From the NCBI GenBank assembly GCA_036172245.1, contig JAYWIR010000037.1, positions 434,001 through 498,000 of the forward strand: a stretch of 64,000 nucleotides of DNA, in the 5' to 3' direction. A program made the position numbers and the translations under genes. The DNA is from Raillietiella orientalis. Its lineage: Eukaryota. Positions 3,001 to 64,000 of this stretch are shown here, piece after piece. The first letter of the stretch is position 1, and each line of letters opens with the position of its first letter. The notes under the pieces are model-generated. The model was given only the letters and a program-made list of their open reading frames with translations. It was not told where the DNA came from and did not search any database.

Positions 3001-6000
3001 CCTGCTTCCTTTATTAGTTTCCCAGCGGGCGCAGGAGACACCACAAGTCACTGTTGTTACGGTTTTCTAATTTACTCATGCATTGAAATCTGACACCAAC
3101 ATTGGAGATCGCAACACGTCCGGGAAAAATTCTGAAGGATAAAAGCGGTTAGCGCAAGCAGGATGCTGCTACCGTTCTTTCTCACTATTTTCGACCCATC
3201 GGTTCGATTCCCCCATTCCTGTTGTAGCATACAAACTCGAAACGGTATTTTGCAAATGCTTTACGCGTGCGCAGTGCGTTACGCTCGTGATTCTGCGAGA
3301 GAGTTGAACTGTTTGCGATCTTATTAAAAAAAAAAAAAAAAAAAAAACTACCGACGAGGGGGTGGGGTGGGGTGGGGGTGGGGACCCACCATCCACAGGC
3401 AGGGGAAAAGCAGCATGAGCGTTCACATTTCTTTCTGCACGTTTTGGATGGGCCATGCAACACTATTTCATGTCGTGGGACGACTGATCAACAAATTGCC
3501 GTCGAAGTTGGTTCGCATATTGGTGCGCAAATATGCGAGCCAACTTCAACCAACCGCCCTTAAATCATCTGGACATTTTCAGATTCGGAAATCATTAGCG
3601 ATGTAGCAGTCATAACATCCACACGACTCCACTACTTTGAAATACCGACACTATCCCAAGCCATCACTTCGTCTTTGAGAACCCAACTGAGATGACATGG
3701 AAAGTGTCTGGTAGCCGCATAACCCAACGACGAACGTGATTTTTTTTTTTTAAAAAAAAAAAACACCTATGAATCGGAAGGGGGGGAAAAGGAAAAAATA
3801 GCTGTTGGCTTTGTGATTGCTGCCTCCGTCACCCTGGGATGGCAATAATCCTCTTCGGAAGCGTGGAAACGCTTCAGATCAGCGCATCAAGTATTAATTT
3901 ATATATGAAATTTGCTGGAATGGATTTCTTCATACTGATACCAAGTACAGACTGCTTCCTTCCACACTTCCACAATTTTGATTACCCGACGGACGGACAT
4001 CCTTGGAATGCAATCAACACGTCAACATGTGAGAAATGTATTGCATTTACGAACTGTGCTTTACCTGAATACACCTTATTATCTCAGCTCGTTGAGGACA
4101 AAGACGATAGCATATTATAGCGTATTATTGAGTAATATATTGTGTTAACTGTACAACTCCTCGAGATATGACGAGAAAGCCTACAGGAAATCTGGAAGAT
4201 TTCTGCATCAGATCCATAATTCCCTCTCGAGTGGGGAGAACTTTGAAGGTTGGGCTCGACCTAGGAGACTCTCTCGGATGAGGAGTAAACCTGAACGTTC
4301 CTGTCTCCATAAACAGGACCACATTCACCAATTAAGGGATGGGAGGGGGAGGGGAAACGACATAAGCTGGTGGATGCAAATCATACACGAACTGCAATGG
4401 TGTGTTTTGTCGCTGTGAATACTGAAGAGCGGTGTCGAAATCACAGATACATATTTCCAGTAAAAAGAACACTTTCCATTGCTCATGAGCAACACGCCCA
4501 AGAGAAAGGGCAAGCTTCATTTCATTCAACTGTACAGAACTTTTGTATAATTTCATAGTCATTATGGAAATGATTCAGAGTCTGCAGTCGAGGACTGAGA
4601 TAGAAAAGCAAATGTCTGACGTCAAAGTGTCGGGCGTAAAGTACTGAAACCAAAGAAGGGAAATGGGGAACAGATAGAAAGAAGGAGACCTTCTTAGATA
4701 TATAAGATGCTTCCTTCGTTTCAGTGTTTGTGATTTTTTTTTTTTTCTTTTTCAATTAATGCACAAAGCGGAGCACATCACGCCTATTCCTTTGTGTTTC
4801 TACTATTGAAATTCGCACAAAGACTTTGAGCTGGCAGACTGAACGACTTTCAATGTCGTTCGTTGGCGAAACAAACTCGAAATTAAAAATGAAGAAGAAG
4901 AAGAAGAAAATACACCAGAGGGAATTACAATGAATACGAAATGAAAGATCACAAATGAAATCAAGGCAACACATTACTGGAAAATGCCAACCCCAACGGC
5001 GAACTCTACATCTAAGCAAGATCAAGGAAATGGCATTCGTCACAACGCATTTTATAATAATCCTGAATTGCAATTTGGATTTATAATGACTGTTCCCTTT
5101 ATGAAGCACGGAAAAACTGAGCTTTTGGGGGGGTCACGTTCACGAAACCTCGAGTGAAACTGGGGAACATATCATGTTATCAGCCGGAAGTGAACACAGC
5201 ACCATTACAAAGAGGAGCAACTAATAGGATTGATAAGCAGTGAGGAACGGATTCCAGCTATCCCTCAAGAATCAGTTTTGAGATAATAGACCCAGAATAC
5301 AAATTACTATCACCCCCCCCCCCTCCTCCCATGACGATCAGATTCATACGAATACTGAGAACAAAGCCGACATTTCGAGGTACTAATCAAGACAATTACT
5401 GCCAACTACGCAATTGACACAATGTAATTCATTGATACAATACCGACGACGACTGAAAAATAACAGTAAAGCAATCCAAAATGTGTTCCGAAAATTCTCA
5501 AAACAAGTACGAGATGCTCTGAACATGTCTTTTACATGTCTTTCTTAGAGAATCCTTGGCTATCTCCAAAGACTTCCGCAAAGTACAGTCATCAATGTAA
5601 GCCTGACTGGTTTATTTGGTCAAGTATTTGCAACGATCTCTTTAAATCTAATCCACGCGCAGGAGACTCTCCTACATCAATCATTTCGTTCGTCGACTGA
5701 CCAGGACACTTGCATGACTTTATAGTAGCGGTGGACAGTGATGCATTCAGAAGGATTCACTGAATAAGGTGCCTTTGAAGCATAAGCGAATTCACGCTCA
5801 GCTTTAGAAGTAACTGAGGGTTTTTTTTTGGCTCTACGTGAAAAACCTGATTTAGTGTACATCAGACAAAAACTTCACTAGATCTGTTTTCATTTGAAAT
5901 ACGAACTCGCCACTGTTTTTTTTTTTTTGAGTTTTCAAATCACACTTTGCCTCCTGCAACTCCATCACAAACATCGAAAATGCTGTCTCCCCCGGAGCTA

Positions 6001-41051: not shown

Positions 41052-43702
41052 ATGGATGAGTCGCAAAGTATTTCCAAGGTAAATTTAAACCAGAAATGCT
41101 GTATATTGTATAGTGGAAAATCAGGGATGATGATTTACCTGTATTAATTTTAGGCCTATCATGTTTTTAAAAGCTTCAAACAGAAAGAATCAAAAAAACA
41201 CAAAAATCTTCCTAGCGAATCGGTGCAAGGTTTTGAAGATTTGAAAATCGTAGACAGCTATCATGCATACAAACTGATATGGAGAAAGTTACAAAATAAA
41301 GTGAAGGTGTTTATGCTTTGAATCATTAATTCATACATATAAAGTTATCAACTATGATCCAGAATATTCTCACACTTTATATTTTATAGAAATTGGAAAT
41401 TAGCTTATACCAAACTCTGCTAGACGATATTATCAACTATATCAAAGACTCTAGTCATAATCTAAATCAGCCATCTGATGCGAAAATTTCAACTTCCATG
41501 ATTTCATTAGGTATACAGTTAGATTGATTTTCCTGTTTAAAAACTTTAGTAATAAAGCAAATCTTCCAAATGCAATCAGAATGTACTTTTCTTTAGGAGT
41601 CAATTTGTCTGATCACAAAGACTTATTTACTATGCTAAGTGAGAGAATAGAAGACGAATTGAATTTTCCAGTGTGCATCCTCCAGAATACCTCCTATAGC
41701 TCTTTATCAAAATTGTTAGAAGAATTAGTTCATCAATTTTTTTTGAAGTTGCAAGTGAGTTGGAATTGAAATTTATAATTTATACCTGTTTTTTGTTAGT
41801 GTTTGCTAACTTATCAGGCAAAGGATGAACTACATTTACACTCATCTGACATTAAACATTCAGATTGCACTCTGCCTAATTTGAGAACATGGTACAAGCA
41901 ACACTTGAAGTCAGATTTTCAATTAAAACATCCAGTAATGGTGGTTATTTTGCCACAGATAGATGGAGTCCCAGCAAATATGCTACAAGATTTCGTGCTT
42001 CTCCTCAGGTGAACAGCTGTCTGTACTGTTCATAAGTCTGTACTGATGCCATAGCTCCTATCAAGAGGAGATGCCATTTCAGTTTGTATTTGGTTTACCA
42101 ACTAGTGTTGAGGCCATGCAACAATTACTTCCACAAAGGGTGATCCGTTTCCTGACAATACGTCATTTTGCCACTAAATCTGCAACAGAACATTTAAGTT
42201 TATTGATAGATGAGGTTTAGTATTTGTTAGAATCTTTAAATTTGATGCTTTTTGAATAGGTGCTATTGCAGAATGTCACTTATTTCCAATTAGGAGGAAG
42301 CACTCTTCGTCTACTAATTGAGAGATTCCTATGTCAAGATTTGAGCATTAGCAGTTTCCTTATTGCAATAAAGGTTTGCAAATAATGATTCTAAGCAAAG
42401 TTTCACACTCCAATAGTTTTGCATTCTCGAACATTATATGAGTCATTCATTAACTCGGATCTGTGTCGATGATGAGCATTTGCCCCATAGTTTGGCTTCT
42501 CTCACTAGCAATGATCTCTCCATTCTATGGCAATTACCATCAGTGGCTCAGCATAAAAAAGAATCTGAAGGTGCATCCTGTCAGCTGGTATAGACTTCCT
42601 GTTACTTGCTAATTAATATTGTGATTAAAGAAAAAAGTTGAATCTTGGCTGAAAGATCTCCAGGTAGCCCATAGCAGACTGGTTGAATGTTGCCGTTTCC
42701 TACATTATTTATGTGGGGGTCTGCCTCATACCCCTTTAAGCAAACATCTGCGAGAGGTGTATTCACAAGCCATGGATGGCAGCTTTCTTCAATGTTCTGA
42801 TTACATACATTGTCTCGATTTGCTGCAAACTGTTGACTTGAAGTCTCTGTTGGCATCTGTTATAGACAAGATGCCTACTGATAGCCTATGGAGGTCAACT
42901 GCCACTCAGCTGATTAGTAAATTGGAAGCATCTCAGAATCAGTTTTGCAAATCATCTGATGTTGATCATCACATAGATATTTCATCAGCACGAACATGTT
43001 CTGAGTTGCAGCAGGTATGCTCGTTATTATCACAATGCAACTCAGGGATTTACTTTAGCGATTACTGGAGATCTCTGACATGAAAAAACAAAAATGGTTG
43101 CAACAAGAAAGTATCCAAAGACAAGTCCTTCTTGAGCTGCAAAGTGTGATCCAGGCTCACATAGTGTCTCCTTCCACTTTACCATTACATGAACTTGTTG
43201 TATTTGATAAACCATTACTTGTTCGTCATCACCTGTTACCTTCTCATCATTATGTATTGCAGAAAGCACTGCGCAATCCTTGGATTTATTTTGGATGCCA
43301 CTGCTGCAAACTGTCTGATATTACAGCTATATTACCTTCATTACCAGATACATGTATTCTATACAAATTGCATTTGGAATTTGGTACAAAGATTAACTTA
43401 TATGATTGGATGTGTGCATTCCGTTCTATCATTTGCCCAGAAGACTTAGAAGGTGAAATATCCAAAGAAGTTCAGTATCCTATTTTTATCAACAAATTTC
43501 AAATACATTTTCTATAGACTCCAATCAATTCTGTAGATGTATGTCAAATTTTTAGTACATCTTTCATCGTGCATTTTTGATCCTTAACGTATGATTCAGA
43601 ATTCGATTTATGAATGCAGTTGCTGAATTGACATTTTTAGGTTACATCAAGTCAATTGCTAACAATCCACACTTTGTACTTCGGCTCACCCATGATCATT
43701 GA
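41052..43702 (+). CDS. ORC3: Origin recognition complex subunit 3
   Basis: Exons 41052-41078, 41154-41306, 41390-41510, 41597-41754, 41818-42008, 42055-42214, 42260-42373, 42417-42587, 42631-43014, 43059-43474, 43600-43702 join to 1998 nt (665 aa) with no internal stop. Motifs resembling ORC3: SISK|AYHVFK, LGVNLSDH, LQDFVLLLS..FVFGLPTS, LPHTPLSKHLREVY, LPDTCILYKLHLEFGTKINLYDWMCAF, and the C-terminal winged helix IRFMNAVAELTFLGYIK...VLRLT. AATAAA at 43793-43798. Confidence 0.93.
43475..43599 (+). other. U12-type (minor spliceosome) GT-AG intron, last intron of ORC3
   Basis: The 5' splice site is GTATCCTAT (U12 consensus GTATCCTTT). A perfect U12 branch motif TCCTTAAC lies at 43581-43588, ending 11 nt before the intron end, with no polypyrimidine tract before CAG. 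Splicing restores the frame (CA|A = Gln, then IRFMNAV). Confidence 0.88.
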
Positions 43703-48836: not shown

Positions 48837-51249
48837 CATCCTAACTTTGCATATCTTCAATCATATTGTTCATTAGTCATTAATCAGTTATTGAAAGAAG
48901 AGCATTGATTGCAAGAGTTGATGGATTTGGAAGCAAGTCATGGAAATCCACAGCAAAGTTCATGTCAGTATTCAGCTGACACGAAATAAACAGAAGCTTA
49001 ATTTTTTCATGGCTTTTTTTTTTTAATTATTGCTTTGAAGTGTTTCAGAACAGTTGCAAAATTTTTTCCATGTGTAGATATTTCTGGTCATTAGCATCTT
49101 TGATAAAGTCAGAAGTGTGAAGTTTAATAGCCTTCATTTATGCCATTAAGGTTTTTGATTGCTTTTTGTTTTGTTTTGATTTTTGGTTCTTTGTTTTCGA
49201 CTTTACACAAATTGGTACTGTTTGGAGTTATAGTGTCAACTTTTGGAAGTCTTTCCTCACCAAAATGAGAGTCAGCAGCATCAAAATGCATTTATTCATA
49301 GAAATTGGAAAACCATAAGTTTGGGTTGAGTATCAACTGGCACATAACCACAAAATACAAACATGTGCATAGCCCCAGTTGCAACATAATTTAATTAGCA
49401 AGTTTGTTTTGAGCGAAATTTTCATATAAGGTACTTTCTGAAAGGAAACTTAGTAAAGGGATAATAATTTTTGTATTGGACTTTGTTGATTTGATAGATA
49501 TTCACAAAAGAAAAATATCCACATTCTGTGAATTTGAAAAGTAGACTGAAAGAATGTCCTTCATTACAATTTTCGGAAATGATTCTGTAATTACGAACAA
49601 TTTTCAAAGAAGGAATGAAATGCCCAATAATGTGAGAAACAGAATTGAAATCAAATGTAAAGAATGTGTTTCAATTTTGAGGTTTGCATTTCAGAATTCT
49701 TGCAATAAATAATAGAGGGTGTGTTGGTATTTACACAATTTATCTATATCTATCTGCATTGATGCTTTTACTTTATGGTATATCTTAAATAACAACATGT
49801 AGCATCAATGAAAGAACAGTTATTCCAAAAGGTTAAATCGTTTTTTTTTGAGATCTTCAGAAGGTTGTGGAGAACCTAAGAAAGAGGCAGAAATAATGAA
49901 TGAGCATTCCTCATTATATAAACCATGAATACTAGTGAGACTTTGAATATGAGCAAAAAAAGGGAAATTGTGGAGTGAACATTTGCTGTTAGTCAGATTC
50001 TAATAATGAGGAGAGTAAGCTGTTGCAATGGGAGCTTGACTAAAAACCTCGAGCCAGGTTCAAATGAAATGATGTTCAATACAGATATTTAACTGTTTGG
50101 AAGCTTTTACTGGTAAATGTGTTTCTTAGGTTGAGAAAGATGCTTCAATGGAGAGCAGTCCATATAATAGTATAATATCAGAGATTTCTTCATTCAAAAT
50201 TTAGTAACATCAAAGCCAAAACAAATTTTAAATTCATGTGAATAACTAAAGACTATTTGGCAATCTTAGGAATATATATATAAGTAATTATGTAACTAAA
50301 AATTTCTAATATGTATGTGGCTAATTAGTTTTTTTCTGTATGCTTAATTAGTTTGATTTTATTTATCCTGCATCTGTTTTCAGAACATCAGAGTCCCTAC
50401 CCATTGCTTTATTAGTGTTATATCTTAAAAAGACTTGAGAATGAGCACAGTTTTATTTAAAGTATTGAAAATGTATCTTCCATGGCGTATGCTTTCATTT
50501 TATCTTAGTTTATTTGAGCAATTGTACAAACAGTTCACAATTCTGTTGCATGCAAACTACAAAATCGGATATTGTAATAGATCTTGTTTGGCAAACTGCC
50601 TGTATATCTTTAGTTTGTTAAGCCTCTTTAGACCTGCTCTCAAGCAATCTGTATTTTAAAAAAGAAAAATCAACAGCATTTCTGTTTTAGAGGATGTTAA
50701 GAATTCTCAGTTGATTCTAGGGAGGTAGTTTTTAAGTGCTTTTTTGGTTCTCTTGTAAGAAATCAACCTTACGAGCCTTTGTTGCTTTCGACGCCTTTCA
50801 TACATAAGTCTCATTCGTTTTGTTGCCATCTCAGCTTCATTCACTGTTTCACAAACATGAAAGAACTTATGTCTGTCTCACTTCTGTTGACTCTGATTTA
50901 CAGTTTATGTTTACAAAGGATTTAATTAATGATTTTTGGGTGCGTGTAGAAGCACTATAGAACTGTTTTATTTTTAGGAAAATTTTTTTTCCATTTCCTT
51001 CAGATTTTGATTTTAGCCTTTTAAAATTTATATTAAATGGGAACTTAACGAAAAAATGCTTGTTTTTATCTTAAGTCAAATTCAGAATATTCTCTGAAAG
51101 CCAACTATATATACTTCAGGTAACAGAACGTATCTCATTGCAATAACTGATCTCATTGAAAATAAACGAGGATCTCCTGTCAAAGACAACTAAACTGGAT
51201 TATTAAGTCTGTTGCTATGGCTTCCTGATTTCTATGCAAACTAAGCTTT

Positions 51250-52008
51250 TTTGCCCAAGCTTTCATGACCACGCGCCCCCAAGCAGGACTGTTTCGCTTG
51301 AGCACGGAGACGAATGGAAGATTCACCCACAGAACGCGAGAGTCTTGGAAACAGCTGCCGCATCAGGCGTGGCTGCTGATGACCAAAGCCAACATCAAGG
51401 AAGAAACCCAGAAGAAACACCAAGACGACGACGAGGCCCTCAATGCAGCCTCGGGCCGCTACGGACTTGCGCATGCAAATATGCAGGCGGTCAGGGCTGC
51501 AATAAGCAGGAGCAATCTTCCCCCGGGCACCCAGGACGACCTCCTGTTGTTCCATCACGGAGGGATCCTGAGTGATTCTAGGCTGCGACACTGGACCGGG
51601 AACATCCAAGACGGACTCTGCAAGGAATGTGGAGCGGAAGAAACGCAGCTCCACGCGTTCACCTGGGCCCACGCTGCGTCCTGATTGGTGGGAGATGAAG
51701 GCGGTGACCGGCCTGCAGAGAAGCAAGAAGACGAAATTCTGGAGGGTTTGTTTCATGGGAACGGAAATGTTCCCTTGTGCAACCCGATGGTTCGAACCAA
51801 GCTTGCCCTCTTCATCACAGCAATTGTGATCAGAAGCGCAAAGATGCATACATCCAAGAGAAGAGCGATGGCACTGGACATCCTGAAAGCACTGGTGATG
51901 AAAGAGGTAGGGATCAGAAAATGCGGAAGGGTCCTGTTTTGGACATATCGCTACATTCTCAGGAGGATTGAAAATTATTCCCAGGCACAAGGAACAACCC
52001 CCCGCCCA
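51250..52008 (+). mobile_element. 3' coding end of a divergent L1/Tx1-like LINE (zf-RVT region), interrupted by the element at 52009; resumes at 54264
   Basis: LLLFHHGGILSDSRLRHWTGNIQDGLCKECGAEETQLHAF parallels LLLLHWGLLSRARLSRWTTGNVDASCAECGERETFPHL of the neighbouring copy. Removing the insert restores ...GTTPRPP-TGA (stop 54279-54281). Confidence 0.7.
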
Positions 52009-54263
52009 GGCGCAGCTACGTCGGGAAAGTCCTGGACTCTCCATTGACAGGGGGGAGGGAAGCCGGGAAGAAGATGCGGCGCCTGGAGCCCTAGCGGTCG
52101 CAGTCGATTTGCGTAAAGCTTTCGACTGCGTCGACCAGGAGCTCCTTCTGGAGCTCCTGGAACGCTTGGGATTTCCGGCCGTCTTCCTGGCCTACCTGCG
52201 CTCCTGCTGGCGCTTCGCGTACATCAATATTAATTTCAGCGGCCGGCACGTGTTCGGCGTGCCGGTTCGGAGTGGCATCCGGCAGGGTGACAGCCTCAGC
52301 CCCCTGCTCTTCAGCATCTACTTTGAGTTGGTGCTGAGAGCATACAGGGAGACTTTGGCAACACTGCCGAGCTCGTGTCCCGGCACGCCTGCCGTGTCGG
52401 CCTATGCCGACGATCTTCTGCTCCTGCTTCCCGGGTCCACCCCGGCATCGGCGCTCGAGGATTTCTTCGAGTTGCTATACCGTGGGACAGGCCTCCAGGT
52501 GAACAGGACGAAGTCGTCGTTGCTTTTCACCGACTCGACGAGGGCCGGACGGTCGGACTGGATCCGCTTGGGGATCCCCACGGGCAGGTACATCAAGTAC
52601 TTTGGCGTTCCGTTGGGGGACTTCTGCTCTGCAGAAGCCTGGTCCGACCGTCTACAAAAAGTGGAGCTGGCGATCGGCCCGTTCCGGGACGGCAAGTTCC
52701 ACTTGCAGGAACGGGCCACGGTATGGAACGCTTTCGCGGCCCTCCTCCTTCGCCCCCTACTTTTTGTGTGCCCTACCCCTCACCAAATTAGGACACGGAC
52801 TAGGGGCCTTATACGGAAAGCCCTCTGGGGCAACCGGAGGCCTCGCGTCCGGCTCAAAGACTTGTGCGCTCCACGCAGGGACGGTGGACTTGGTCTCCTG
52901 ACGTTGGAGCGCATGGAGCGACAGCTCCAATTCAGAAAACTTGCCCTTGTGGCAAAGTTTTGGACAGCACCCTGGTGTGCACCAGCAAGACTCCTTGCTC
53001 ACAGGGCAACCGGCTGCTTCGGATTGACTTCAATCCTGGTAGCCAACGAACGCAGCCTGAACCATTGTGGTTATCAGCTGCGGGATTTGGTTGCTCTGAT
53101 GAGAGACAACCCTTGGATCTCCTGCATCCCAGCGGACTGGACTACCTGGCTTCAGGAGTCCGTATCCGCATGGGCGAAGATCAATGGCACCAGCGATGAG
53201 GACTTCTCCTGCCTCCGCAGAGGGAGGCACGCTGGTCAGCCACTACAGGAGATCGTTTCCAACCCACGGAAACTTCTGTGGGCTTCCTTCACCCCCCTTG
53301 CCCCAGTGCTGCCCTCCCTCAGGGAAGTTCGGGACAGCAACCAACAGGCATCGTGGGAAGTGTCCTGCCTCATCGGAGGCAGGAAGAAATCACTGAAGGC
53401 ATGGACGCCGAGGGAACTAGCGGACGCTAGTACCCCGAGTGTCCCGCCGAACGGACTTTTACGCTGGGGCGCGCTACTCGGTATACCTCCGGAGGAGGTG
53501 AAGTGGCCCCCAGCGTCATGGGACAACGGCACCCTTCCCCTGCAGTGGCAGGAGACGGCATTGCTTCTGCTCCACTGGGGACTTTTAAGCAGAGCACGCC
53601 TGTCTCGCTGGACAACGGGGAATGTGGATGCTAGTTGTGCAGAGTGCGGGGAAAGGGAGACCTTCCCCCACTTGATTCTGGAGTGTGTTGCCCTCCACGA
53701 AATGTGGGACAGACTCTCGTCGATCCTCAACATTCCGGAGGGTGACCCAAAAAATTTATTCAGACGCCTTCTGACGCGAGACGGCTTGCCAGCCTCCGGG
53801 AGCGTAGCAGTGCTCTGCTGCATACGCGGTATCCTGGAGAAGTGGACCGCGTCTAGGAGAGGAAGGACCAGCCGGAAGGCCATCCACTGGGCAGCGATCT
53901 CCTTGGAGAAAGCGTGCCGTTGGCGCCGACTTCAAAAACATTTGCCAGCACTTGTTCGCATCCGAAACCGGATGCAAAGGCCTGCTCACGGCGCACCGTG
54001 ATACCCTCCCTCCCTCCCCCTCCCCAGAAAACTTTGCCCTCCAGACGTTTTTCTTTTTTGTTTTTGTTTTCTTTTATTTTTCCCGTCCCGGCGCCAGTGA
54101 AGGACCTGATCGGCCTCCGGGTCGGTAAGGACAAGTGCTACTGAACTTCTGAACTGAACTTCTGACGTCGAAAAAAGAAAAATGTTAACAACATAGACTT
54201 TGTTACAAAATTTTGTAACTTCAAAATTTTAGTAATAAAAGCCCCGGCTTACCCGGGTGAAAT
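52009..54263 (+). mobile_element. 5'-truncated L1/Tx1-like non-LTR retrotransposon with an uninterrupted RT-to-C-terminus frame and 12-bp TSD
   Basis: The open frame to TGA at 54001 has RT motifs AVDLRKAFD, GIRQGDSLSPLLF, AYADD, KYFG, LCAPRRDGGLG and C-terminal CCHC CAECGERETFPHLILEC. It is flanked by ACCCCCCGCCCA at 51997-52008 and 54264-54275, and ends AATAAAA-GCCCCGGCTTACCCGGGTG-AAA. Confidence 0.93.
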
Positions 54264-54754
54264 ACCCCCCGCCCACCCTGAACCCAAACTTCCAAAGGCG
54301 GAAAATTGCAGTGACACTGATGCGGAATGAACAGCCCGAAGGAACAAGAGTGCAATGTTTAATGGTGGAAACCCTTAAAAGACAGAAGAGACTGATTGTT
54401 GCTTGTTCGAATTTGAAAGTTTGTTTTTAATAAATTCACCCCACCGCTTGTCGGACCTGAGAACAATTTGGACCATGCATGTTATTGCTCGCTCGAAATT
54501 GGATTGCAAAAGTAGCGCAAAGAGTAATTTGCTTGCAGTAATTCTCTTCTACTCGGAATAACGTAAGAAAATCGTATGTGGAAAGTAACAGAAATCTTAA
54601 TGTGAATAGCAAGATTCATCTGGTCGTTTAGTTTGAATTTTTTGTTTGTTTACACCCGGCCATGCCAGCGTTTAGTGTAAAAATTATTTCAAGAAATAGC
54701 CATACTTTAGGGAAAAAAGAGCTTTTTTCTTGCAATGGAATTGTAACTCCTTAA

Positions 54755-54914
54755 GCAGGTGGAGAGTACCACACCGAACAGCGGGCCGGTAAGGGCAAGT
54801 GAAAAAACATTGCCAGAACCACGTGTTCTGGAAGAAACAAGGCCCCAGAGACGAAATTTACTTATAACGAATGATATGAAATTTTAAAAATAGAAGCCCC
54901 GGCTTATCCGGGTG
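54755..54914 (+). mobile_element. 3'-UTR-only remnant of the same LINE family
   Basis: Carries the family 3' module without any ORF: GGAGAGTACC-ACACCGAACAGCGGGCCGGTAAGG, hairpin CCAGAAC/GTTCTGG (54813-54831), and terminal GCCCCGGCTTATCCGGGTG (54896-54914). Confidence 0.7.
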
Positions 54915-55335
54915 GCTCAGGAACCATGCTCCATCCGTGGACATAACCGGTCTGTCCCGCGATGATGACGGATTCGGCTAGCCACCCTAGGCTCTTTGAA
55001 GGCCACGGTTTGCGGGAGGCTTGGCATCCGCGTTCCCTGGCGTGATCGGATGCCAATTGCCCATGCTGCTCAAGTCTTCTCCCTGGAGAAGATGTGCCCT
55101 TGCTGATCGGAACGAGGGAGCCACCTCACCTCTTTCTCCAATCATGGCTGGTACACCAGGGGAGTCAGCTCTGGCGCGAAGCACCGCTGAAACTCTTCCG
55201 GGATAGATCGTTCTCCCGTGGTGATTTCTTCCTCTTGTGCTATCCGACGGCCGACACTCTCCAGTCGTGAACGACTCGCTGAGAGGACTCTGACGAGACT
55301 CTTCAACTGGAAAGTAAAAATCGCACACAATTCTC
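54915..55335 (-). mobile_element. Decayed LINE fragment, RT domains 0-1
   Basis: Minus-strand translation ...GEVAPSFRSARAHLLQGEDLSSMGNWHPITPGNADAK resembles the NWRPITLLNxDxK motif; frameshifted. Confidence 0.7.
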
Positions 55336-55379
55336 TCAGGAGAAGTCAGAAGTAGATATGTCTTCTGTTGCTGCTCCCA

Positions 55380-55989
55380 TGTTCACCCTGTTAGAACTTG
55401 AGGATTTCTTCGAGTTGCTAAGTCGGGGCCAGGTCTGGCAGTGAGCAGAGAGAAGTTGTCCTTGGCACCGGTCGGTGCGGCGTGGGCTGAACGATGGGGC
55501 TGGTTCCGCTTGGGGATGCCCACGAGAGGGCACATCAAGTACCCTGGCGTTCCGTTGGGGGGGTTCTGCATAGCAGAAGTGTGGTCCGGCTCTCTCCAGA
55601 AACTAGAGATGGTACCCGGCCCGAAACGAACCGCGGTGCGAAACTTATTCGCAGCTCCTCCCCTCCGCCCCCTGCTTTCGGTTTGCCCCGTCCATCCTGG
55701 CATTAAGAGAAAAACCGAGGACCTCCTGAAGAAAGCCCTGTGTGGCACAGGGAGGTCCAGAGTCCGACTCAAAGACCTGTGTGCTCCGCGTAGGGATGGT
55801 ACACTGAGTCTCCTTACGCTGGAGAGGATGGAACGTCGGCTGCAGTCCACACTCGCTCTCGAGGCAAGATTATGGACCATACCTGGATGCGCACCAACAC
55901 GACTCCTCTAGAAGAGAGCAACCGGCTGCAAGGGACTCACATCCTTTTTCGTCTCTGGCGAGAGATGTCTGAGGCGTTGCGGACATCAA
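55380..55989 (+). mobile_element. Decayed LINE fragment, RT domains 5-7 and thumb
   Basis: LEDFFELLSRG...HIKYPGVPLGGFC...RVRLKDLCAPRRDG...RATGCKGLTS...RRCGHQ is collinear with the 52009 element. Confidence 0.85.
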
Positions 55990-58900
55990 TTTCGCCAGAC
56001 GGTTGCACTGTTCCCGGAAGAACCATGGAGACCAACCTGTTCCTAGCCATTACCTGGTGGCAGTTGCAACAACGCAAGGCACAGCTGTGTCAAGAGAATT
56101 CTGCATTCTCCTCTGACCAGGGAGAGAAAAACTGAGAAGAAACGTACGCGTCCGGAACCTTTGCAGTCGCCGTCGACCTGCGTAAAGCTTTCGATTTTTA
56201 CCCGGATTTCGCCGGGGTGTTTATTTAAAAATAAACTTTTACAAAGACGTGCAGTGGCTGAAGCAATGCTCCAGCCACGCACGAAGAAACACAGAGCCTG
56301 CCGGGTCACCGGTTCGCAGACCGGTACGGTCCACCAAGGCAGCAGGGGAAGGAAGAAAAACAAAAACTAAACAAAAAGAAAAAAAAGAGTGGGGGGGTAC
56401 GGAAAGGGATCACTGTTGCTGCTGGGGCCGTTGCATCCTTCTCAGGATGCCGGCAAGCTCTTCTTGTATTCGCGGATCCAGGTGGGGCCATCGCGAAGCC
56501 CTCCTCAGGAATTGGGCGGCGCCCTGGATGGCATCCTTATCGCGTGGTCCTCCAGTAGCCGTGCTCCTTGCGGCGACGATCCCGCGAAGGCAGCACAAGG
56601 CTGCTATCGAGGCCGCTGAAGGGCTTCGGCAACGAAGAGGGCTTTCTATGCGTCCCTGGGGTTGCCGCAGGGGATAGCGATGTCCGCGGCAAAGCGTAGC
56701 CAAAGGGACCGAAAGGCAACACAATCCACAAGCAGGTGAGAGAAGACTCCCGTTCCCCACACCTAACACAATTTGGGTTCACCGCTCCCCAGGTCCAATG
56801 GAGTCGGCGGGTGTTGCAGGGAAGTCCCCAATGCTACAACAGTAGCGCCGACTCCTGCATTTTAAGTGGAGGGTGGAGGTGTTCGTGAGCACCGGGGGCC
56901 ACTTCAGATGTTCAATCGGAACATCGAGCAGCGCGTCCCAGCGCAGAAGACCATTAGAAGGCGTACTCGGGGTCGCAGCGTCTGTTAGCTGGTCCGTCTT
57001 TCACTCTCCTATCTTTTTCTCCTTTCCGGAGATTTTTATCCTAACCTCCCACTTCGCCGCAACATCGTTGTCCTGATCTTCCCCTAGAGAGGCCAGCGCA
57101 GCAGCGAGGGGGGTTCTTCCTGACCACCCTCGCTTCTTCGGATCCTCCAGGATCTCTCGGAGAGTGCAACTTCTGTAGCACCCAAACAGGAACCGTCGTT
57201 CCTGTTGGGCGCGTTGCATGCCGCACTGTGCCCACGTGCGAACGGTTTTCTGCAACTAGGCACTACCGTTCGCGGGGCGACAGGTGATCCATCCGTGGTT
57301 TTTCCGAACGAAGACAGTCACCCTCCACAGCTGGAGCCCACATCGGTTGATGCGGGAGCGATGGAGTGAAAGAAAGGACGTGAATCCCGTCTTCCCGATG
57401 GCTTTCTTGACGAGGAGACGTGCAGGGACGAACCAGCAGGTGCACCACAACTCCGGCACAACGGCCAACATCCGGAACTGGAGCTGAAGCTTTAGCCGCT
57501 CCAACGTCTGGATGCCGAGACCGCCATCCCGACGCGGAGCGCACAAGTCCTTTAAGCGGACTCGAGCCCTCCCGTTGCCATAAAGGGCGATACGGAGGAG
57601 GTCCTTCGTCCGCTTTTCAATCCTCTCTGTGGGGGGGCAAACAAAAAGCAGGGAACGGAGGAGAGGAGCCGCGAACGTGTTCCGAACCGCTGCCCGTTCA
57701 GGCAGGAAAAACCTGCCGCCTCGGAACGGGCCGATCGCCGTCTCTACTTTTTGGAGGCACTCGGACCACGCTTCCGCAGGGAAGTAGTCCCCAACGGCAC
57801 ACCAAGGTACTTGAAGTACCTTACCGTGGGGATCCCCAAACGGACCCAGTCCTGCTGCCCTGCCCACGCCGCACCAACTGGCATCACGGACGACTTCGCC
57901 CTGTTCACCGTAAGTCCGGTTCCCCGACTCAGCAGGTCGAAGAACTCCTCGACCGCCGAAGCGGGGGTGGACATAGGGAGCAGCAGCAGAAGGTCGTCCG
58001 CGTACGCTGAAACCGCAGGCGTACCGGCACAGTCGTGCGGCAGGTGCGCCAGAGTTTCCCTGTACGCGCTCAGTACCAACTCAAAGTAGGTACTGAAGAG
58101 CAAAGGGCTCAGGCTGTCTCCTTGCCGTATCCCACGACGCACCGGCACGCCGTGCACGGTCTACCCGCGGAAAGAAACGTTGATGAGTGCCAGCTGGAGC
58201 GCAGATAGGCCACTAATGAGGCCGGGAAGCCCAAGCGTTCCAGAAGCTCCAGCAGGAGATTCTGGTCGACGCAGTCGAATGCTTTCCGCAAGTCGACTGC
58301 GACCGCAAGGGCTCCCTCCCCCATCCGACCATCTGACCCTTTGTCGGCGCACGCACCGGAATTCCGGCTGCGCAACAAACCCCTTTCTTGTTGGAGCTCT
58401 AGCCAGGTGGAAGCGTGGAACAGGTTCGCCTCCATGCTTCGCCCGGGAACAGCATATGTCTGTTCCGGGCTGATGAAGGCGTTTGCAACCCGTCCCAAAC
58501 GCTCTGCCCAAACTTTAGCTACCAACTTGGCGTCCGCATTCACTATTGTGAAGGGACGTCAGTTGTTCATGTAAAGCTTTCAAGCTTTTCGTTAAGCTTT
58601 CGACTGCGTCGATCAGGTACCCCTTCTGGAACTCCTGGAACGCATAGGTTTTCCGACCGTATTCCTGGGTTATCTGAGCTCTCCTGCTGGCGTTTTGTGT
58701 ACATCACCATTTCCTTCAGCGGATGGCACGTGTACGGCGTGCCGGTTCGGTGTGGCATAAGGCAAGGTGACAGACTGAGCCCCCTGCTCTTTAGCATCTA
58801 TTTCGAGTTGGTGCTGAGAACATATAGGGAGACTTTGGCAACCCTGCCGAGCTCATGTCCCGGAACGCCTGACGTGTCAGCCTACGCCGACGACCTGCTC

Positions 58901-60686
58901 CTGCTCCCTGGGTCCATCCCGGCTTCTGTTCTCGAGGATTTCTTCGAGTTGCTCAGCCGTGGGATGGGCCTCGAAGTGTACAGGGCGAAGTCGTCCATCA
59001 TACCAGTTGGTGCGGCGTGGGCAGGATTTCGGACTTGATTCGCTTGGGGATCCCCACGGTCGGGTACTTGAAGTACCTCGGCGTTCCGCTGATGGACGTT
59101 GGGGGACTTCTGCCAGTCAGAAGCCTGGTCAGGTCGTCTCCCAAAAGTGGAGTCAGCGATCGGCCCGTTCCTGGAAGGCAAGCTTCACTTGCCGGAACGG
59201 GCCGCGGTATGGAACGCGTTCGCGGCCCCCCTCCTTCGCCCCCTGCTTTTTGTTTGCCCCGTACTCCGTGAACTGAAAAAAAGAACAAAGGACCTCCTAC
59301 GCATCGCCCTGTGGGGCGGCGGGAGGCCTCGTGTGCCTTTAAAGGATTTGTGCGCTCCACGTCGGGACGGAGGTCTTAGCGTCCTGACGATGGAGCGAAT
59401 GGAAACACAGCTGCGGTGGCGTACTCTAGCCATCGCAGCGAAAATGTGGAACACCCCTTGGTGCGTTCCAGCCCGCCTTCTCGCCAGACGTGTGTCCGGG
59501 ACTGAAGGACTCGCGTCTTTTCTTCTGTGCCCCGGCCGGAAAATAAGAAGATGCGGACTTCTCCTGGGACGCATGGCCACCCTGGCAAAGGAGAATGGCC
59601 TGCAGCCCCGCCAACTCCAGCGCATGGCTGGAAGAAACAGTTGGAACGTGGGCAAAGTTGAAACACATCAGCACACTGCAACCGCCTGCGCACCGGCATC
59701 TACACCCGCTGCACGCTGCGGAACATGATCGTGTGTCCCGCCAGAAGCACTTGGGCGGAGACAACCCCACTGGCCACAGGGCTGCCCTTCCTACGAAGGG
59801 CGCTTCAAAACAGCCGGAAGCCGAGATGGCAAGTCTCCTGCCGGATAGCGGGCAAGGAGAAGGAGTTAAGTGGGTGGACAGTGAGGGAACTGGCAGACGC
59901 CGCAACTCCAAGCGTTCACCCGCATGGAATACGGAGATGGGGCGAGCTGCTTGACATCCCGGCGGATGACCTAGAGTGGCTTCCGTTATTTAGAGACGCA
60001 TCCACATTCCCCCTCAAGTGGCAGGAAACGGCGCTGTTGTTGTTGCACTGGGGTCTTCCCTGCAACGCGCGCCGCCACCACTGGACGTTGGGGAACGTGG
60101 GACAGAACTGTGCAGTGTGCGGGGAGAAGGAATCCCTCCCCCATCTGTTAGTGGACTGCGCTGCCCTCCGGCCCTTGTGGGAACGTTATGCTACGACCCT
60201 CCCTATGCCGGTCGGCAGTACCCCCAGAGACGTTCTGAGACTCCTCTTCGTGCGAGACGCCCTGCCACCAGCCTCAACCCTGGCAGCGCTCTGCTGCCTC
60301 CGAGGGATTGTGGCCGCCTGAAGCGCAGCCAGCAGAGGAAGCAGAGACAGGGACCCCATCGTACACGCGGGTCGCTACCTGCGAATCGCGATCGGCTGGT
60401 CCCATCTGGGAACTATGACGAGGGACCTCGAGGGCATCCTGGAAAGGATGGTCTCTTCCTCTAGCGGGTTGTGATCCCTTCCCGGCCCTCCAAATAGTTT
60501 CTTTTTGTTATTTCATTTATTTTTCTTTTTGTTTTACCCCCTCCCCCCTCCTCGCTGCCGAGGAGAGTCAAGCCGGTCTGCGAACCAGCTTCCTAAAAGG
60601 TCCCAGGAACTATTGGCCGTAGCGGGACCTAGTACCGCAGATGTACTGTGTTTTTTAATAAACGCCCCGGCGTGACCGGGTGAAAA
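55990..60686 (+). mobile_element. 5'-truncated LINE (55990-56194 plus 58571-60686) split by a nested opposite-strand copy
   Basis: ISPD..VPGRTMETNLF...AVAVDLRKAFD breaks at 56194 and resumes at 58571-58603 as KAFDCVDQ...GIRQGDRLSPLLF...AYADD...LCAPRRDGGL...CAVCGEKESLPHLLVDC. Several frameshifts. Ends AATAAA-CGCCCCGGCGTGACCGGGTG-AAAA at 60686. Confidence 0.88.
56195..58570 (-). mobile_element. 5'-truncated LINE inserted antisense into another copy, with TSD
   Basis: Minus strand reads N*RPFTIVNADAKLVAKVW...AVDLRKAFDCVDQ...QGDSLSPLLF...AYADD...CVRCGERESSL with frameshifts. The 3' end is AATAAA-CACCCCGGCGAAATCCGGGT-AAAAA. TSD GTAAAGCTTTC at 56182-56192 and 58571-58581. Confidence 0.92.
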
Positions 60687-60689
60687 CTC

Positions 60690-61388
60690 CCACGAGTCCA
60701 GTAAGAGAGGGGTGCTCTTCAAAGGAGTCTCCAATGCAACGCCACCTCTTGTCACTTCAAGGGGAGGGTGCCATTGTCCCAACGCGCTGGGGTCACCTCA
60801 CCTCCTCAAGGCCCTCCTCCAGATGTGGGATAGACTCGTCGATCCTAAACATTCCGGTGGGCGACTCCAAGAACATTTTTCGTCGCCTCCGGATGCGGGA
60901 GTCCTGCCAGCAGCCGCGTAAGATACTGGAGTGTAACAGTTCTCTGTTGCATCCGCGGCATCCTGGCAAAATAATCTGTATCGATGAGAGGCCACAACAG
61001 CCGGAATGCCATTCACTGGGTGGCAATCTCCATGCAGAACGCTTCCCGAAGGCCCCGGCTACGAACTATACGACCGGGACTTGTCCGCCTCCAAACCAGG
61101 ATGGAGAAAAAAAAATGATTCAAATACTTGATGATCCTTTCCGAAAAACATTGCTCTCCTCTTTTGTTTTGGCTTATTTTTTTGTTTTTTTTGTGGTTTT
61201 CCCTCCCTCATCGCCCACGGAGAGGACCTCACCAGCCTGCGGGCCGGTAACGATGAATGCTCAGAGACAGTTGGAACCACCCGTTCCAACTGTCTCTGAG
61301 CATTCATGAACAAATTTCTAAGACTTTATTATAAAATTTTATGTGCAAAGTTTCAATAATAGATGCCCCGGCAAATCCGGATGAAAAA
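60690..61388 (+). mobile_element. 3' fragment of LINE (end of ORF plus complete 3' UTR module)
   Basis: PHLL..LLQMWDRL / SILNIPVGDSKNIFRRL matches the C-terminus of the 52009 element. Ends AATAATAGAT-GCCCCGGCAAATCCGGATG-AAAAA. Confidence 0.85.
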
Positions 61389-62495
61389 CCTGCCCGTGGG
61401 GATCCACAAGAGGACCCAGCCCGACCGTGCTGACCTCTGAAATGCAATGCAATAAGTGCGTTGCGTCAGCAGGAGTGTAGATAGGCCAGAAAGATGTTCT
61501 GAAATCCCATGGGTTCCAGGATCTCCAGGAGTTCCTGGTCAACACAGCTTTGCGCAGATCGACCGCGATTGCAAGGGCTCCAGACACGTCTCTTCCTTGG
61601 TGGCCTTCCCCTTCCTGTTCAGAGAAGAATCCAGAATTCGTTAAAACAGCTCACTGTTGCAACTGCCACCATGCCACATGCTCGCGAAGAACAGGCTGTC
61701 CTCCATGGTTCGTCCGGGAACAACGTGCTGTATGTTTGTTCCAGACTAATCACGGATTCGACCACTCGTCCCAATAGCTCTGCCCATAGTTTGGCAAGCG
61801 ATCCGTCGTCCGCGTTCACTACTGTAATGAGCTGCCATTTTCCAACGTTGCGCAAGTCTTCTGCTTTCGGGAGGAGACGTACTCTTGCTGATCGGAACGA
61901 GGTTTGTTCGCGGATCAGCCTGCATAATCAGTGCACCAGGAGGGCAAGCTCTGCTGCGAAACCTTGATAGAACTCTGTGGGCAGGTCATCCTCCGCTGGT
62001 GCTTTCCGCCTCTTGAAGCCTTCCGATGGCGGAGATGAACTCCGCCATCTGAAGGGTTCCTCGAGGCTTCTTGCCCCTCCTCCTCTAACGCTCTTGTGCG
62101 CTCTGGCAGCAAACGCTGCGCAGAGTCGTACTCTGAGGGTACCCTCACGTAAATCGAGGGGTAAAAATCACGTAAGTTTTCGGCTTACCTGAGCTGGGGC
62201 CGAGTGTTCTTGGTCCCGATTGTTCAGCAAACAGGCCGATCCGAATTGCCCCCCAGGCCCATCTTTGTATACCGCCAGACGTCAGACGTCGGGAGTCTTG
62301 CAGAAGCGACGGGTGTGGAGGTGCGCTGTTTCGCTCTGCACCCCATCGCCAAAACCTGGAGGAAGACGGCCCAGGGGGAACTGGTCGCAGAACTCTCGGA
62401 CTGTGCATTTTAATTTGTCCCAGTCCTCGAACATCTGCAGTTCGGACCCTCGCAGGAATTGGAAGGTGCTCCGCTGCTCCTGAGAGGTTCAACTA
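61389..62495 (-). mobile_element. Decayed LINE fragment (EN-RT linker to RT domain 3)
   Basis: Minus-strand pieces GKWQLITVVNADDGSLAKLWAELLGRVVESVISLEQTY and GALAIAVDLRKA; multiple indels. Confidence 0.75.
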
Positions 62496-62499
62496 GTCC

Positions 62500-63340
62500 C
62501 CTGGCAAGCGCCATGCTTGGGAGGGAGGACCCCTGTAGCGCGGAAGTGGGACCGCGCATTGGAACTCATTCGCGGCTCCTCTGCTCCTAGCCCTGCTTTT
62601 TGTTTGCCACCCCTCACTTTTACATGGTGGAGACATCCAGAAACTTGTCACGCACGAACATGTATTTCTTTACATGAAATAGTGGACCGCGGACCTTTTA
62701 AGAAACACCCTGTGGAGCAAAGAAAAGGCGCTCGTCTGGTTGAGAGATCTGATGACTTGACTCCAGTGGTGGTCTTAGCCTCATGACTCTTGAAGACAAG
62801 AAGAGTCTGCTCCATCAGAAAAGAGTAGCATAAGTTTGGGAGAACTAGACGTTTCCATGGTGCGTCCCAGCACGTGCCCACGCCGAGTGAGCAGCCGGCT
62901 GCGAAGGACTGACATCGTTCCTCGTCGGCAGCCACTGAAGTCTAACCCATGGCAGATGCTTGCCTTGGTGGAGGAGATCCCTTGGCTCTCCTGTCTCCCT
63001 GCGAACTGTACTACCTGACTTAAGGAGGCAGTTGACATGTGGGGAAGGATCCACGACACGAGGGCGGAACACGACTCCTGTCAGCTACGGGGCAGGTACG
63101 CTCTCGTCAGTCGTTTCAGGAGATCGTAAGCAAGGATCGAAGGTGCGTTGGGGCTTTGATAACTCTCCTTTGCCGCGGCGGTGCTCTCCTTAAGAAAGGC
63201 AAGAGGCGATGGAAGACAGGCAAGGCGGGAGACGAGCTGCTGCGTTCCAGGGAAAAAGAAACCTCTTGGTGGGTGGGTGGTCGACACGTGAACTGGCGGA
63301 CGTTGCGACCCCGAGTGTTTCCATTAAAAGGACTCTAACG
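62500..63340 (+). mobile_element. Decayed LINE fragment (thumb/C-terminal region)
   Basis: Relics such as PWLSCLPANCTT and GWSTRELADVATPSV are collinear with PWISCIPADWTT and AWTPRELADASTPSV of the 52009 element. Confidence 0.7.
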
Positions 63341-63344
63341 CTGG

Positions 63345-63730
63345 GCTCAGCTCCGTCCCATGCAGACACGAGCAAAAATGAAAGGCAAGCATTCACCATG
63401 TTTGCATTTAGCATTTCTGATTTGTGCAGCTCTCCTACGAATCTTATCTTTCCAATTACTTCCGCTTAGCCTTACGTTCACCACCTCCATCATCAGCATT
63501 TCGTCCTTTTTCAAATTCTGGTTGGCATCTATCAAGAAACTTACGAAATGCTACTTCGTGCCTATCTGCTTGAAGTGCTTCCTCACTCATTTTGCCACAT
63601 TCTACTACAAAATTTGGTTCATCGACAGCCTTTTCAAATACAAAATTTAAACTTCCCCCCAATCGAATTTGCGTACCTCTTCCTAAAGCATGAATCGTGT
63701 CGATTCGTGAAAGGAACTTTTGTTGTTTTT
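63345..63730 (-). pseudogene. Decayed intronless fragment of an eIF4G-type MIF4G (HEAT-1) domain
   Basis: Minus strand reads QQKFLSRIDTIHALGRGTQIRLGGSLNFVFEKAVDEPNFVVECGKMS...VAFRKFLDRCQPEFEK...AKRK*LE, then a -1 frameshift, then IRFVGELHKSEMLNANMVNACLSFLL. This parallels eIF4G LIFEKAISEPNF...FRKLLLNRCQKEFEK...[33 protein letters not shown]. It has a premature TAA at 63456-58 and a frameshift. Confidence 0.78.
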
Positions 63731-63734
63731 TTAA

Positions 63735-64000
63735 CCCTTTGAGTGTTGTGGACGCATAGATGCTCCCGAAGGAAGCCATCAGCATGGCGTTTACGCATGC
63801 GTTTGGCAAATTGCACGCGCAGCATAATTTAACACTGCCAATGTTTGAGATGGACATTCTCATCATCCCCCTGGCAACGACAGTAAACAAAATTCTGCTT
63901 GTATATCGGCCAACGATTCTCGGTTTCTCTCGGTGTTCGTACAGAATTTCTTATACCGTTTTTCATCTTTGTGATATCTTGAAAATGTGAATGGATCAAC
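63735..64000. mobile_element. Second copy of the piggyBac-type MITE (runs off the right edge)
   Basis: TTAA at 63731-34 followed by CCCTTTGAGTG. About 170 bp are near-identical to the 34948 copy; the segment just inside the TIR differs. Confidence 0.85.

Follow-up and report, generated by a model that had tools for sequence, protein, structure and literature searches.

In a 64,000-nucleotide stretch of Raillietiella orientalis DNA (contig JAYWIR010000037.1, positions 434,001 to 498,000 of the forward strand; hereafter the window, numbered from its first letter), five copies of long interspersed nuclear elements (LINEs) end in a common 3'-terminal module of hairpins, the last of which follows an AATAAA hexamer. 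The five ends had been described in an initial annotation made from the sequence alone, and their positions, the order of the parts and the terminal loops were all reproduced here. The copies, E1 to E5, and their recognisable parts are listed below.

52009..54263, + strand: E1, a 5'-truncated L1/Tx1-group LINE with reverse transcriptase (RT), zf-RVT, 3' untranslated region (UTR) and terminal module, delimited by profile domains and a target-site duplication (TSD)
54109..54126, + strand: hairpin 1 of E1, 6-bp stem and loop CUCCGG; C(UCCG)G closure possible in the subfamily of E1
54202..54219, + strand: AU-rich palindrome of E1 just before AATAAA, not a homologue of the middle hairpin
54234..54263, + strand: terminal unit of E1, with AATAAA 54234-39, 3-nt linker, stem 54243-47/54253-57, loop 54248-52 and 6-nt tail
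54755..54914, + strand: E2, a UTR-only remnant with degenerate hairpin 1 (54773-90) and middle hairpin (54813-31)
56195..58570, - strand: E3, a 5'-truncated LINE, 5' limit approximate
56195..56342, - strand: module of E3, with outer stem (~56342-37/56303-298), hairpin 1 (56325-08, loop CUGCGA) and middle hairpin (56283-48)
60560..60686, + strand: module of E4, with hairpin 1 (60572-89, loop CUGCGA) and a weak middle hairpin
61220..61388, + strand: module of E5, with hairpin 1 (61231-48, loop CUGCGG) and a middle hairpin grown to a 25-bp stem (61253-307)

The frame preceding the first end (51911-54001) matches RVT_1 (E 2.9e-15) and zf-RVT in Pfam, and E1 is bounded by a 12-bp TSD (51997-52008/54264-54275); its true middle hairpin is degenerate. 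The terminal part of E2 comprises AATAGA (54889-94) and the stem 54898-902/54908-12, followed by a tail without AA, and no TSD was found in a search around this copy. E3 lies antisense in a sister LINE, where it interrupts the codons for the RT motif DLRKAFD, with a rearranged duplication on its 5' side (~58571-58600), and its minus-strand terminal unit consists of AATAAA (56225-20), stem (56216-12/56205-01) and tail (56200-195). The terminal unit of E4 (AATAAA 60657-62, stem 60666-70/60676-80, tail 60681-86) stands antisense near nt 3235-3245 of open reading frame 2 (ORF2) of a sister LINE, as do two more copies of the same subfamily. That of E5 has AATAGA (61358-63), stem (61367-71/61377-81) and a tail starting at 61382. 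A purine-rich leader, described initially as shared by all ends, is present in some copies and is not universal.

The module is real, conserved genome-wide and abundant, with thousands of copies. In a search of the 210-Mb genome, with reversed patterns as controls, AATAAA-N0-8-CCCGG-N4-7-CCGGR had 1444+1426 = 2870 exact matches on the two strands compared with 1+3 = 4 for its reverse, and a degenerate hairpin-1 pattern placed 50-110 nt upstream of AATAAA had 1346+1420 = 2766 compared with 4+5 = 9. The parts travel together: when ends were chosen solely on hairpin 1 and AATAAA, 114 of 118 had the terminal motif as well. While the last 420 nt of ORF2 show a median identity of only 55% between copies (133 copies), AATAAA and the terminal stem are conserved to at least 90%; hairpin 1, ~45-155 nt upstream, is also conserved. 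Loop and linker variants track the ORF2 tree, and the tail is therefore inherited with its element.

The check for a previously known module proposed with the initial annotation came out negative on the Rfam side, where the window from 50000 to 64000 (E up to 5) gave 4 weak matches, all far below gathering scores. No description of the module was found in the literature searched, which did not extend to Repbase, Dfam, most subscription journals or supplements, and an existing annotation is possible. The terminal pattern had no exact match in metagenome contigs, and seven distant loci, with identities of 22-35% and in one case 61% over 28 aa, lacked both motifs, although near genomes may be outside these scans.

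Hairpin 1 consists of a 6-bp stem and a hexaloop, CUGCGN. Hairpin 1 could be recognised in 111 of 137 ends; in these, the first loop base is C in 106, the second U in 110 and the fifth G in 105, under a score that favoured these letters. The sixth is free (U52/G23/C21/A15 of 111, and U79/C19/A16/G4 of 118 in a second set), and the commonest loop is CUGCGU (71/118). This does not agree with the proposal that the loop is an extra-stable C(UNCG)G tetraloop, which needs G as sixth base: G stands there in only 23/111 and 4/118, and the closure can form in only two of the five window copies (54109-26 and 61231-48). Since the sixth base is free elsewhere, C(UNCG)G is a special case of subfamilies. 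By analogy, fixed C1 and G5 with a free sixth base may instead fit the pseudo-triloop type. The apical loop CUGUGC of hepatitis B virus (HBV) epsilon is described as such a loop (PMC1636360), and a human foamy virus hairpin has a UGC triloop with a U bulge, which a C-G closing pair switches to a plain hexaloop in free RNA (PMC3884659). The hexaloop, the conserved C1/G5 and the free, mostly pyrimidine sixth base are common to these loops and ours (PMC1636360, PMC3884659), and CUGCGU matches the foamy virus loop in composition (PMC3884659). However, the C-G closing pair that prevents the pseudo-triloop in foamy virus is present in 46 of 118 ends here (U-A in 40, G-C in only 12). The viral loops belong to unrelated elements and have a 5' location, so the likeness is structural and no homology is claimed.

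The stem of hairpin 1 is flexible in sequence. In 67 diverse copies (68 picks minus two false ones, plus E2), 87.8% of its cells are paired, with 66 double changes compared with 17.5 in shuffles (0/500 reaching it), a count also far above slid controls. As these rows were selected by a score that rewards pairing, which detracts from the count, ends were re-anchored by sequence alone (172/195 ends, of which 133/169 with the ORF2 end were kept). The resulting 133 rows entered a tree-aware test, in which a G-test over 3403 column pairs was compared with a null in which substitutions are redistributed over the ORF2 tree. Two of the 3403 pairs pass, and the covariation check suggested at the outset is thereby borne out for these two. 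Ranking first is the closing pair of hairpin 1 (U-A, C-G, G-C; E 0.025 on the 111 rows with a 5-nt terminal loop), and ranking second is the base after AATAAA with the second base of the terminal loop. Loop bases C1 and G5 can pair in 121/133 rows, without covariation and with an anchoring that favoured these letters. Two further pairings considered by eye, one between the hairpin-1 loop and downstream sequence and another between the leader and a GGUCC stretch, failed the covariation test.

The second pair would be a tertiary contact between the linker behind AATAAA and the terminal loop, which the initial annotation had missed. It occurs as C-G in 81, U-A in 25 and A-U in 14 of 133 rows, with E 0.005, or E 0.04 when only the 111 rows whose loop has 5 nt are used, for which no register choice is needed (22 rows dropped). 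Five branches change both bases: three tips and a deep branch replace C-G by U-A, and another deep branch replaces U-A by A-U. In 13 tips only one side has changed. Genome-wide, in counts inflated by subfamily size, the contact is obeyed by 1734 of 2038 copies with a perfect stem and a 5-nt loop: C is met by G in 1314/1461, U by A in 308/414 (the rest being mostly U-G), A by U in 111/129 and G by C in 1/34. All five window copies keep the rule (predicted A54240-U54249 in E1, A-U retained in E2, C-G in E3 and E4, U-A in E5). The distance from AATAAA to the stem is rigid at 3 nt. Neighbouring bases could extend the helix, by G-C in 134/184 and A-U in 114/184 of a set enriched for variants, both without covariation, in which case a minimal H-type pseudoknot is predicted. 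The stem itself is sequence-invariant, with one double change among 114 ends and departures that resemble decay; because of this invariance, its pairs show no covariation. On balance, the covariation leads us to favour a real linker-loop pair, with some reservation.

The outer stem CUGCCG/CGGCAG around hairpin 1, likewise overlooked before, is perfect in 45/133 ends compared with 14% of shuffles and is 53% paired in one alignment; it was not significant in the tree-aware test. It is real for part of the family but not universal. The middle segments were initially taken to be self-complementary and different in every copy. All of them do fold; the palindrome at 54202-19, however, is not homologous with the other four segments, and the middle hairpin has, by eye, a recurring core across subfamilies. 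At least 7 of 8 bp of the middle stem form in 108/133 ends compared with 52% of shuffles, and 29 of 89 representatives have a folding z score below -2, the median being -0.9. The G-U pair noted in the minus-strand copy, which becomes A-C on the other strand, is indeed there but is a single case: of the 89, 54 are more stable in sense and 35 in antisense, a weak difference. The middle hairpin is at times extended to a long perfect inverted repeat (window 61253-61307, with a folding z of -10 in E5; loci L098 and L139), which perhaps arises from fold-back or template switching.

The position at which the elements end was determined by searching upstream of each of 250 ends for an exact repeat of its 3' flank. 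TSDs of 12-17 bp (mode 14 bp) were found in 26/250 ends, compared with 1/198 when seeds were taken from further downstream; 10-12-mers far upstream are possibly chance matches. In 16 of the 26 cases the TSD starts 6 nt past the terminal stem; the offset is 5 in 6, 4 in 2, 7 in 1 and 9 in 1, and the 5-nt offsets are explicable by a one-base overlap with the target. The ends thus lie 5-6 nt past the stem, in line with the early proposal that the elements stop near the terminal hairpin and not far from it, and their position is unchanged at unrelated targets. The tail reads T-G-N-N-A-A (T in 109, G in 100, A in 111 and A in 105 of 114), and the longest A run after the end is at most 6 in all 250 ends. 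A tail of "3-5 A's", as first described, holds for the subfamilies in the window, while the general end is this fixed hexamer. The short terminal repeats of stringent elements of the L2 clade are not present in this module.

So precise an end, several stems and a possible pseudoknot could be the work of a ribozyme that generates the RNA 3' end by cleaving itself, and in vitro self-cleavage had been raised as a test. We regard this as very improbable. None of the Rfam matches in the searched part of the window belongs to a ribozyme family, and 133 of 169 testable ends run uninterrupted from ORF2 through the module. TSD-bounded copies begin anywhere from 84 to >2000 nt upstream, with no pile-up of starts at the module, and the conserved strand cannot come from sequence past the end, as that sequence is variable target DNA. 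Readings as HDV-, hammerhead-, twister- or pistol-like ribozymes were considered on grounds of topology and dropped.

Taken together, the conserved tail, the two covarying pairs and the TSD-fixed end agree with the initial proposal of an L1/Tx1-like family with a structured 3' end and a hairpin after AATAAA. We suggest that the module is probably a 3' template-recognition tail of the stringent type that also sets the start of complementary DNA (cDNA) synthesis. The ORF2 protein (ORF2p) may bind the folded 3' UTR at two places. One would be hairpin 1, with its conserved CUGCGN loop on a sequence-flexible stem; the other would be the terminal unit, made of AAUAAA, the GC stem and either a lone pair or a 2-3-bp pseudoknot between the post-AAUAAA linker and the terminal loop. 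Binding would place the RT active site a fixed distance downstream, such that target-primed cDNA starts ~6 nt past the stem regardless of whether poly(A) or read-through transcript follows. AAUAAA probably doubles as a cleavage/polyadenylation signal, given that the end lies 24-25 nt past it, and the two A's that close the element may derive from the start of a poly(A) tail.

The same distance fits a different explanation, in which RNA processing produces the end: AAUAAA and the hairpin would direct precise cleavage ~24 nt downstream, polyadenylation would be slight or absent or the RNA later trimmed, the RT would simply copy from the RNA 3' end, and the module would be a 3'-processing or stability signal for host factors. 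In its favour, the distance between the conserved AATAAA and the end is constant, A predominates at both positions 5 and 6 of the tail, and an end 24-25 nt past the hexamer falls in the usual cleavage window. On the other hand, the conservation extends to hairpin 1, well upstream, and one TSD-bounded copy has three extra A's (the offset of 9), which suggests that A-tailed templates exist. To our knowledge, moreover, the rigid 3-nt spacing and a covarying linker-loop pair go beyond any known requirement of cleavage factors. We therefore consider an end made by RNA processing unlikely, if less so than a ribozyme.

Several observations weigh against template recognition by the module, or against the structures it is built on. 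The other five pairs of hairpin 1 fail the tree-aware test singly, as do all five pairs of the terminal stem, for which the evidence is complementarity. The E value of 0.005 for the contact used a loop-register rule set after the signal was seen, the first register for 6-nt loops having given E 1.4-1.7. Of the five double changes in the contact, four replace C-G by U-A at two CpG sites, three of these on single tips, so that some could stem from CpG decay; the change from U-A to A-U alone escapes this objection. One group retains C with the loop CUUGA (26 of the 100 listed, out of 147), and the G-C pair next to the contact is disrupted in 44/184 and shows no covariation. One TSD-bounded copy (L113) ends in TGGCAT although its target has C, which disfavours a poly(A) origin of base 6. 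TSDs, finally, were seen in only about a tenth of ends, partly because many 5' ends lay outside the analysed DNA or had been disrupted by nesting.

Longer copies elsewhere in the genome have an ORF1 with a CCHC knuckle (zf-CCHC) and an ORF2 of 1207-1215 aa, which in L061 and L065 contains Exo_endo_phos (the apurinic/apyrimidinic-type endonuclease, APE), RVT_1 and zf-RVT. The elements belong to the L1/Tx1 group and are LINEs with two ORFs, an APE and an RT. The closest solved protein is human L1 ORF2p (E 6e-49), with R2 at E 6e-15, these being the only two clades with solved structures. Protein relatives comprise two close matches (62-64%) and others about 25-41% identical, and yielded no useful clade names; owing to the low identity of the latter, the assignment stays at the level of the group. 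The 12-17-bp TSDs and the variable 5' truncation are hallmarks of target-primed reverse transcription. The variable poly(A) tract of relaxed, mammalian-type L1s is missing and the tail is conserved instead, whereas the family-specific target preference of Tx1 elements is present in the form of recurrent junctions in sister ORF2s. A conserved 3' stem-loop with compensatory changes, as expected of a stringent tail, is found in hairpin 1, and the terminal stem is conserved without covariation. Close copies are 96-98% identical, indicating a recent family. Short TSD-bounded copies look like truncated LINEs, in an analysis that included no search aimed at tRNA-headed partners. Uninterrupted ORF2s (1207-1215 aa) occur at L065:4116-9727 and L061:4874-8751, the former also with ORF1 and a 10-bp TSD. 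At L068, L003, L078 and L057 there are head-to-tail arrays, in which a full-length element begins a few bases past the 3' end of another, as if the same site was hit again.

Mapping of 244 flanks placed 71 junctions inside LINE ORFs, 46 of them antisense in ORF2. Junctions recur within a few bases at nt 1072 (14), 1717-1729 (5), 903 (4), 201-210 (4), 1476 (3) and 3235-3245 (3), and in sense at nt 479-481 (4), with the nt-1072 and nt-903 groups inflated by loci having been collected by similarity to one ORF. Segmental duplication as the sole cause of the repeated junctions fits flank identities of at least 0.9 and was rejected for flanks at 0.45-0.7; since many pairs have flanks 45-70% alike under more similar inserts, independent insertions are indicated. 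The GC-rich nests can be explained by subfamilies repeatedly entering the same ORF2 positions, mostly antisense. Several sites coincide with conserved motif codons, namely DLRKAFD, NADAK, GDFN and LQEIH (window 56172-56194 and 58571-58610; L036, L073, L075, L099). In one subfamily (L010, L019, L025, L027, L095, L097, L105, L106, L110, L111) the flank is nearly always CCAGTG-like and does not map to LINE ORFs.

Reuse of the same sites in sister LINEs is what one would expect if, as cited for R1Bm (PMC7265360), downstream sequence annealed to the target: the transcript would read through into the donor flank, the flank would pair with a similar target, yielding a precise junction as well as site choice by subfamily, and the hairpins would serve only for assembly of the ribonucleoprotein. 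We find such a route improbable for these elements, since copies of one subfamily end at +5/+6 even in targets that agree in no more than their first one or two bases, and none of 25 TSD-bounded copies showed a 3' transduction.

Template recognition by a structured tail has precedents. Among L1-clade elements, the monocot LINE1-1_ZM group and Chlamydomonas L1-1_CR have a conserved 3' end in which the hairpin stem varies by compensatory changes and the loop, UCU, is conserved (PMC3747384). An L1-clade-type element, a conserved 3' hairpin, compensatory stem changes and a conserved loop are thus shared with the present family, but the monocot and algal tails are a single hairpin of ~45-50 nt, have partner short interspersed elements (SINEs) and, in L1-1_CR, end in poly(A) (PMC3747384). 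The R. orientalis module differs in its three stems, AATAAA within the conserved unit, predicted linker-loop contact, fixed 6-nt end and lack of poly(A). In the L2 clade, eel UnaL2 and zebrafish ZfL2-1/ZfL2-2 also have a 3' stem-loop, of which both stem and loop are required, and ZfL2 ORF2 binds its cognate stem-loop via the region between endonuclease and RT; their loops are family-specific (PMC4176376), whereas here the hairpin-1 loop is common to subfamilies of another clade.

A-clade vertebrate R2 binds a pseudoknot-hinge-stem at the 3' end, a tertiary RNA element whose A-rich single strand (GAAAAG hinge) positions the template and in which compensatory changes rescue insertion (PMC12180492); the module predicted here would share such a 3'-terminal tertiary element and A-rich strand. 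R2 has one ORF and a restriction-like endonuclease and is specific for ribosomal DNA, and its solved pseudoknot lies upstream of hinge and stem (PMC12180492); ours is a prediction drawn from a single covarying pair, and the last stem would take part in it. Insertion into other repeats is known from APE LINEs of the Tx1 clade, such as Xenopus Tx1 into Tx1D, crocodilian Tx1-Mar, and Tx1-8_Crp and Tx1-4_AMi into long terminal repeat elements (PMC4494074). Unlike in these, the targets here are ORF2s of sister LINEs of the same radiation, mostly entered antisense. The SINEU partners of Tx1-Mar carry poly(A) tails (PMC4494074).

Human L1 ORF2p chiefly recognises poly(A), and stringent recognition has been proposed as ancestral for the L1 clade; in these sources, L1-clade evidence for it comes so far from plants and algae (PMC3747384, PMC5135761, PMC12503042). 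The present family goes beyond an ordinary stringent tail in that an L1/Tx1-group enzyme of an animal is combined with the lack of poly(A), an end exact almost to the base and a predicted tertiary contact. A family of this kind, with thousands of copies, an open ORF2 and a compact tail, would allow a direct test of an L1-type enzyme reading a structured end, and a short tail giving precise junctions would interest builders of retrotransposon insertion tools. As a tentative and more specific picture, this could be an animal L1/Tx1 lineage without any poly(A) priming, in which a ~30-nt pseudoknot including the end of AAUAAA acts as the ruler of the end (+6 start), an epsilon-like pseudo-triloop is a second anchor and subfamilies divide the conserved codons of sister LINEs among themselves as targets.

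Directly upstream of the TSD of E1, window 51241-51910 is a GC-rich, coding-like fragment with a Cys/His motif, which is probably the end of another non-LTR element that received E1. Two further regions of the window contain gene sequence. Exons of a cell-adhesion gene of the Ig/fibronectin type, with very short introns, a patch of 60% GC and Ig domains identified by Pfam, lie at 193-2856 on the minus strand; the gene may resemble insect turtle. At 42625-43517 on the plus strand, two frames read like the C-terminal part of what is presumably a gene for origin-recognition-complex subunit 3.

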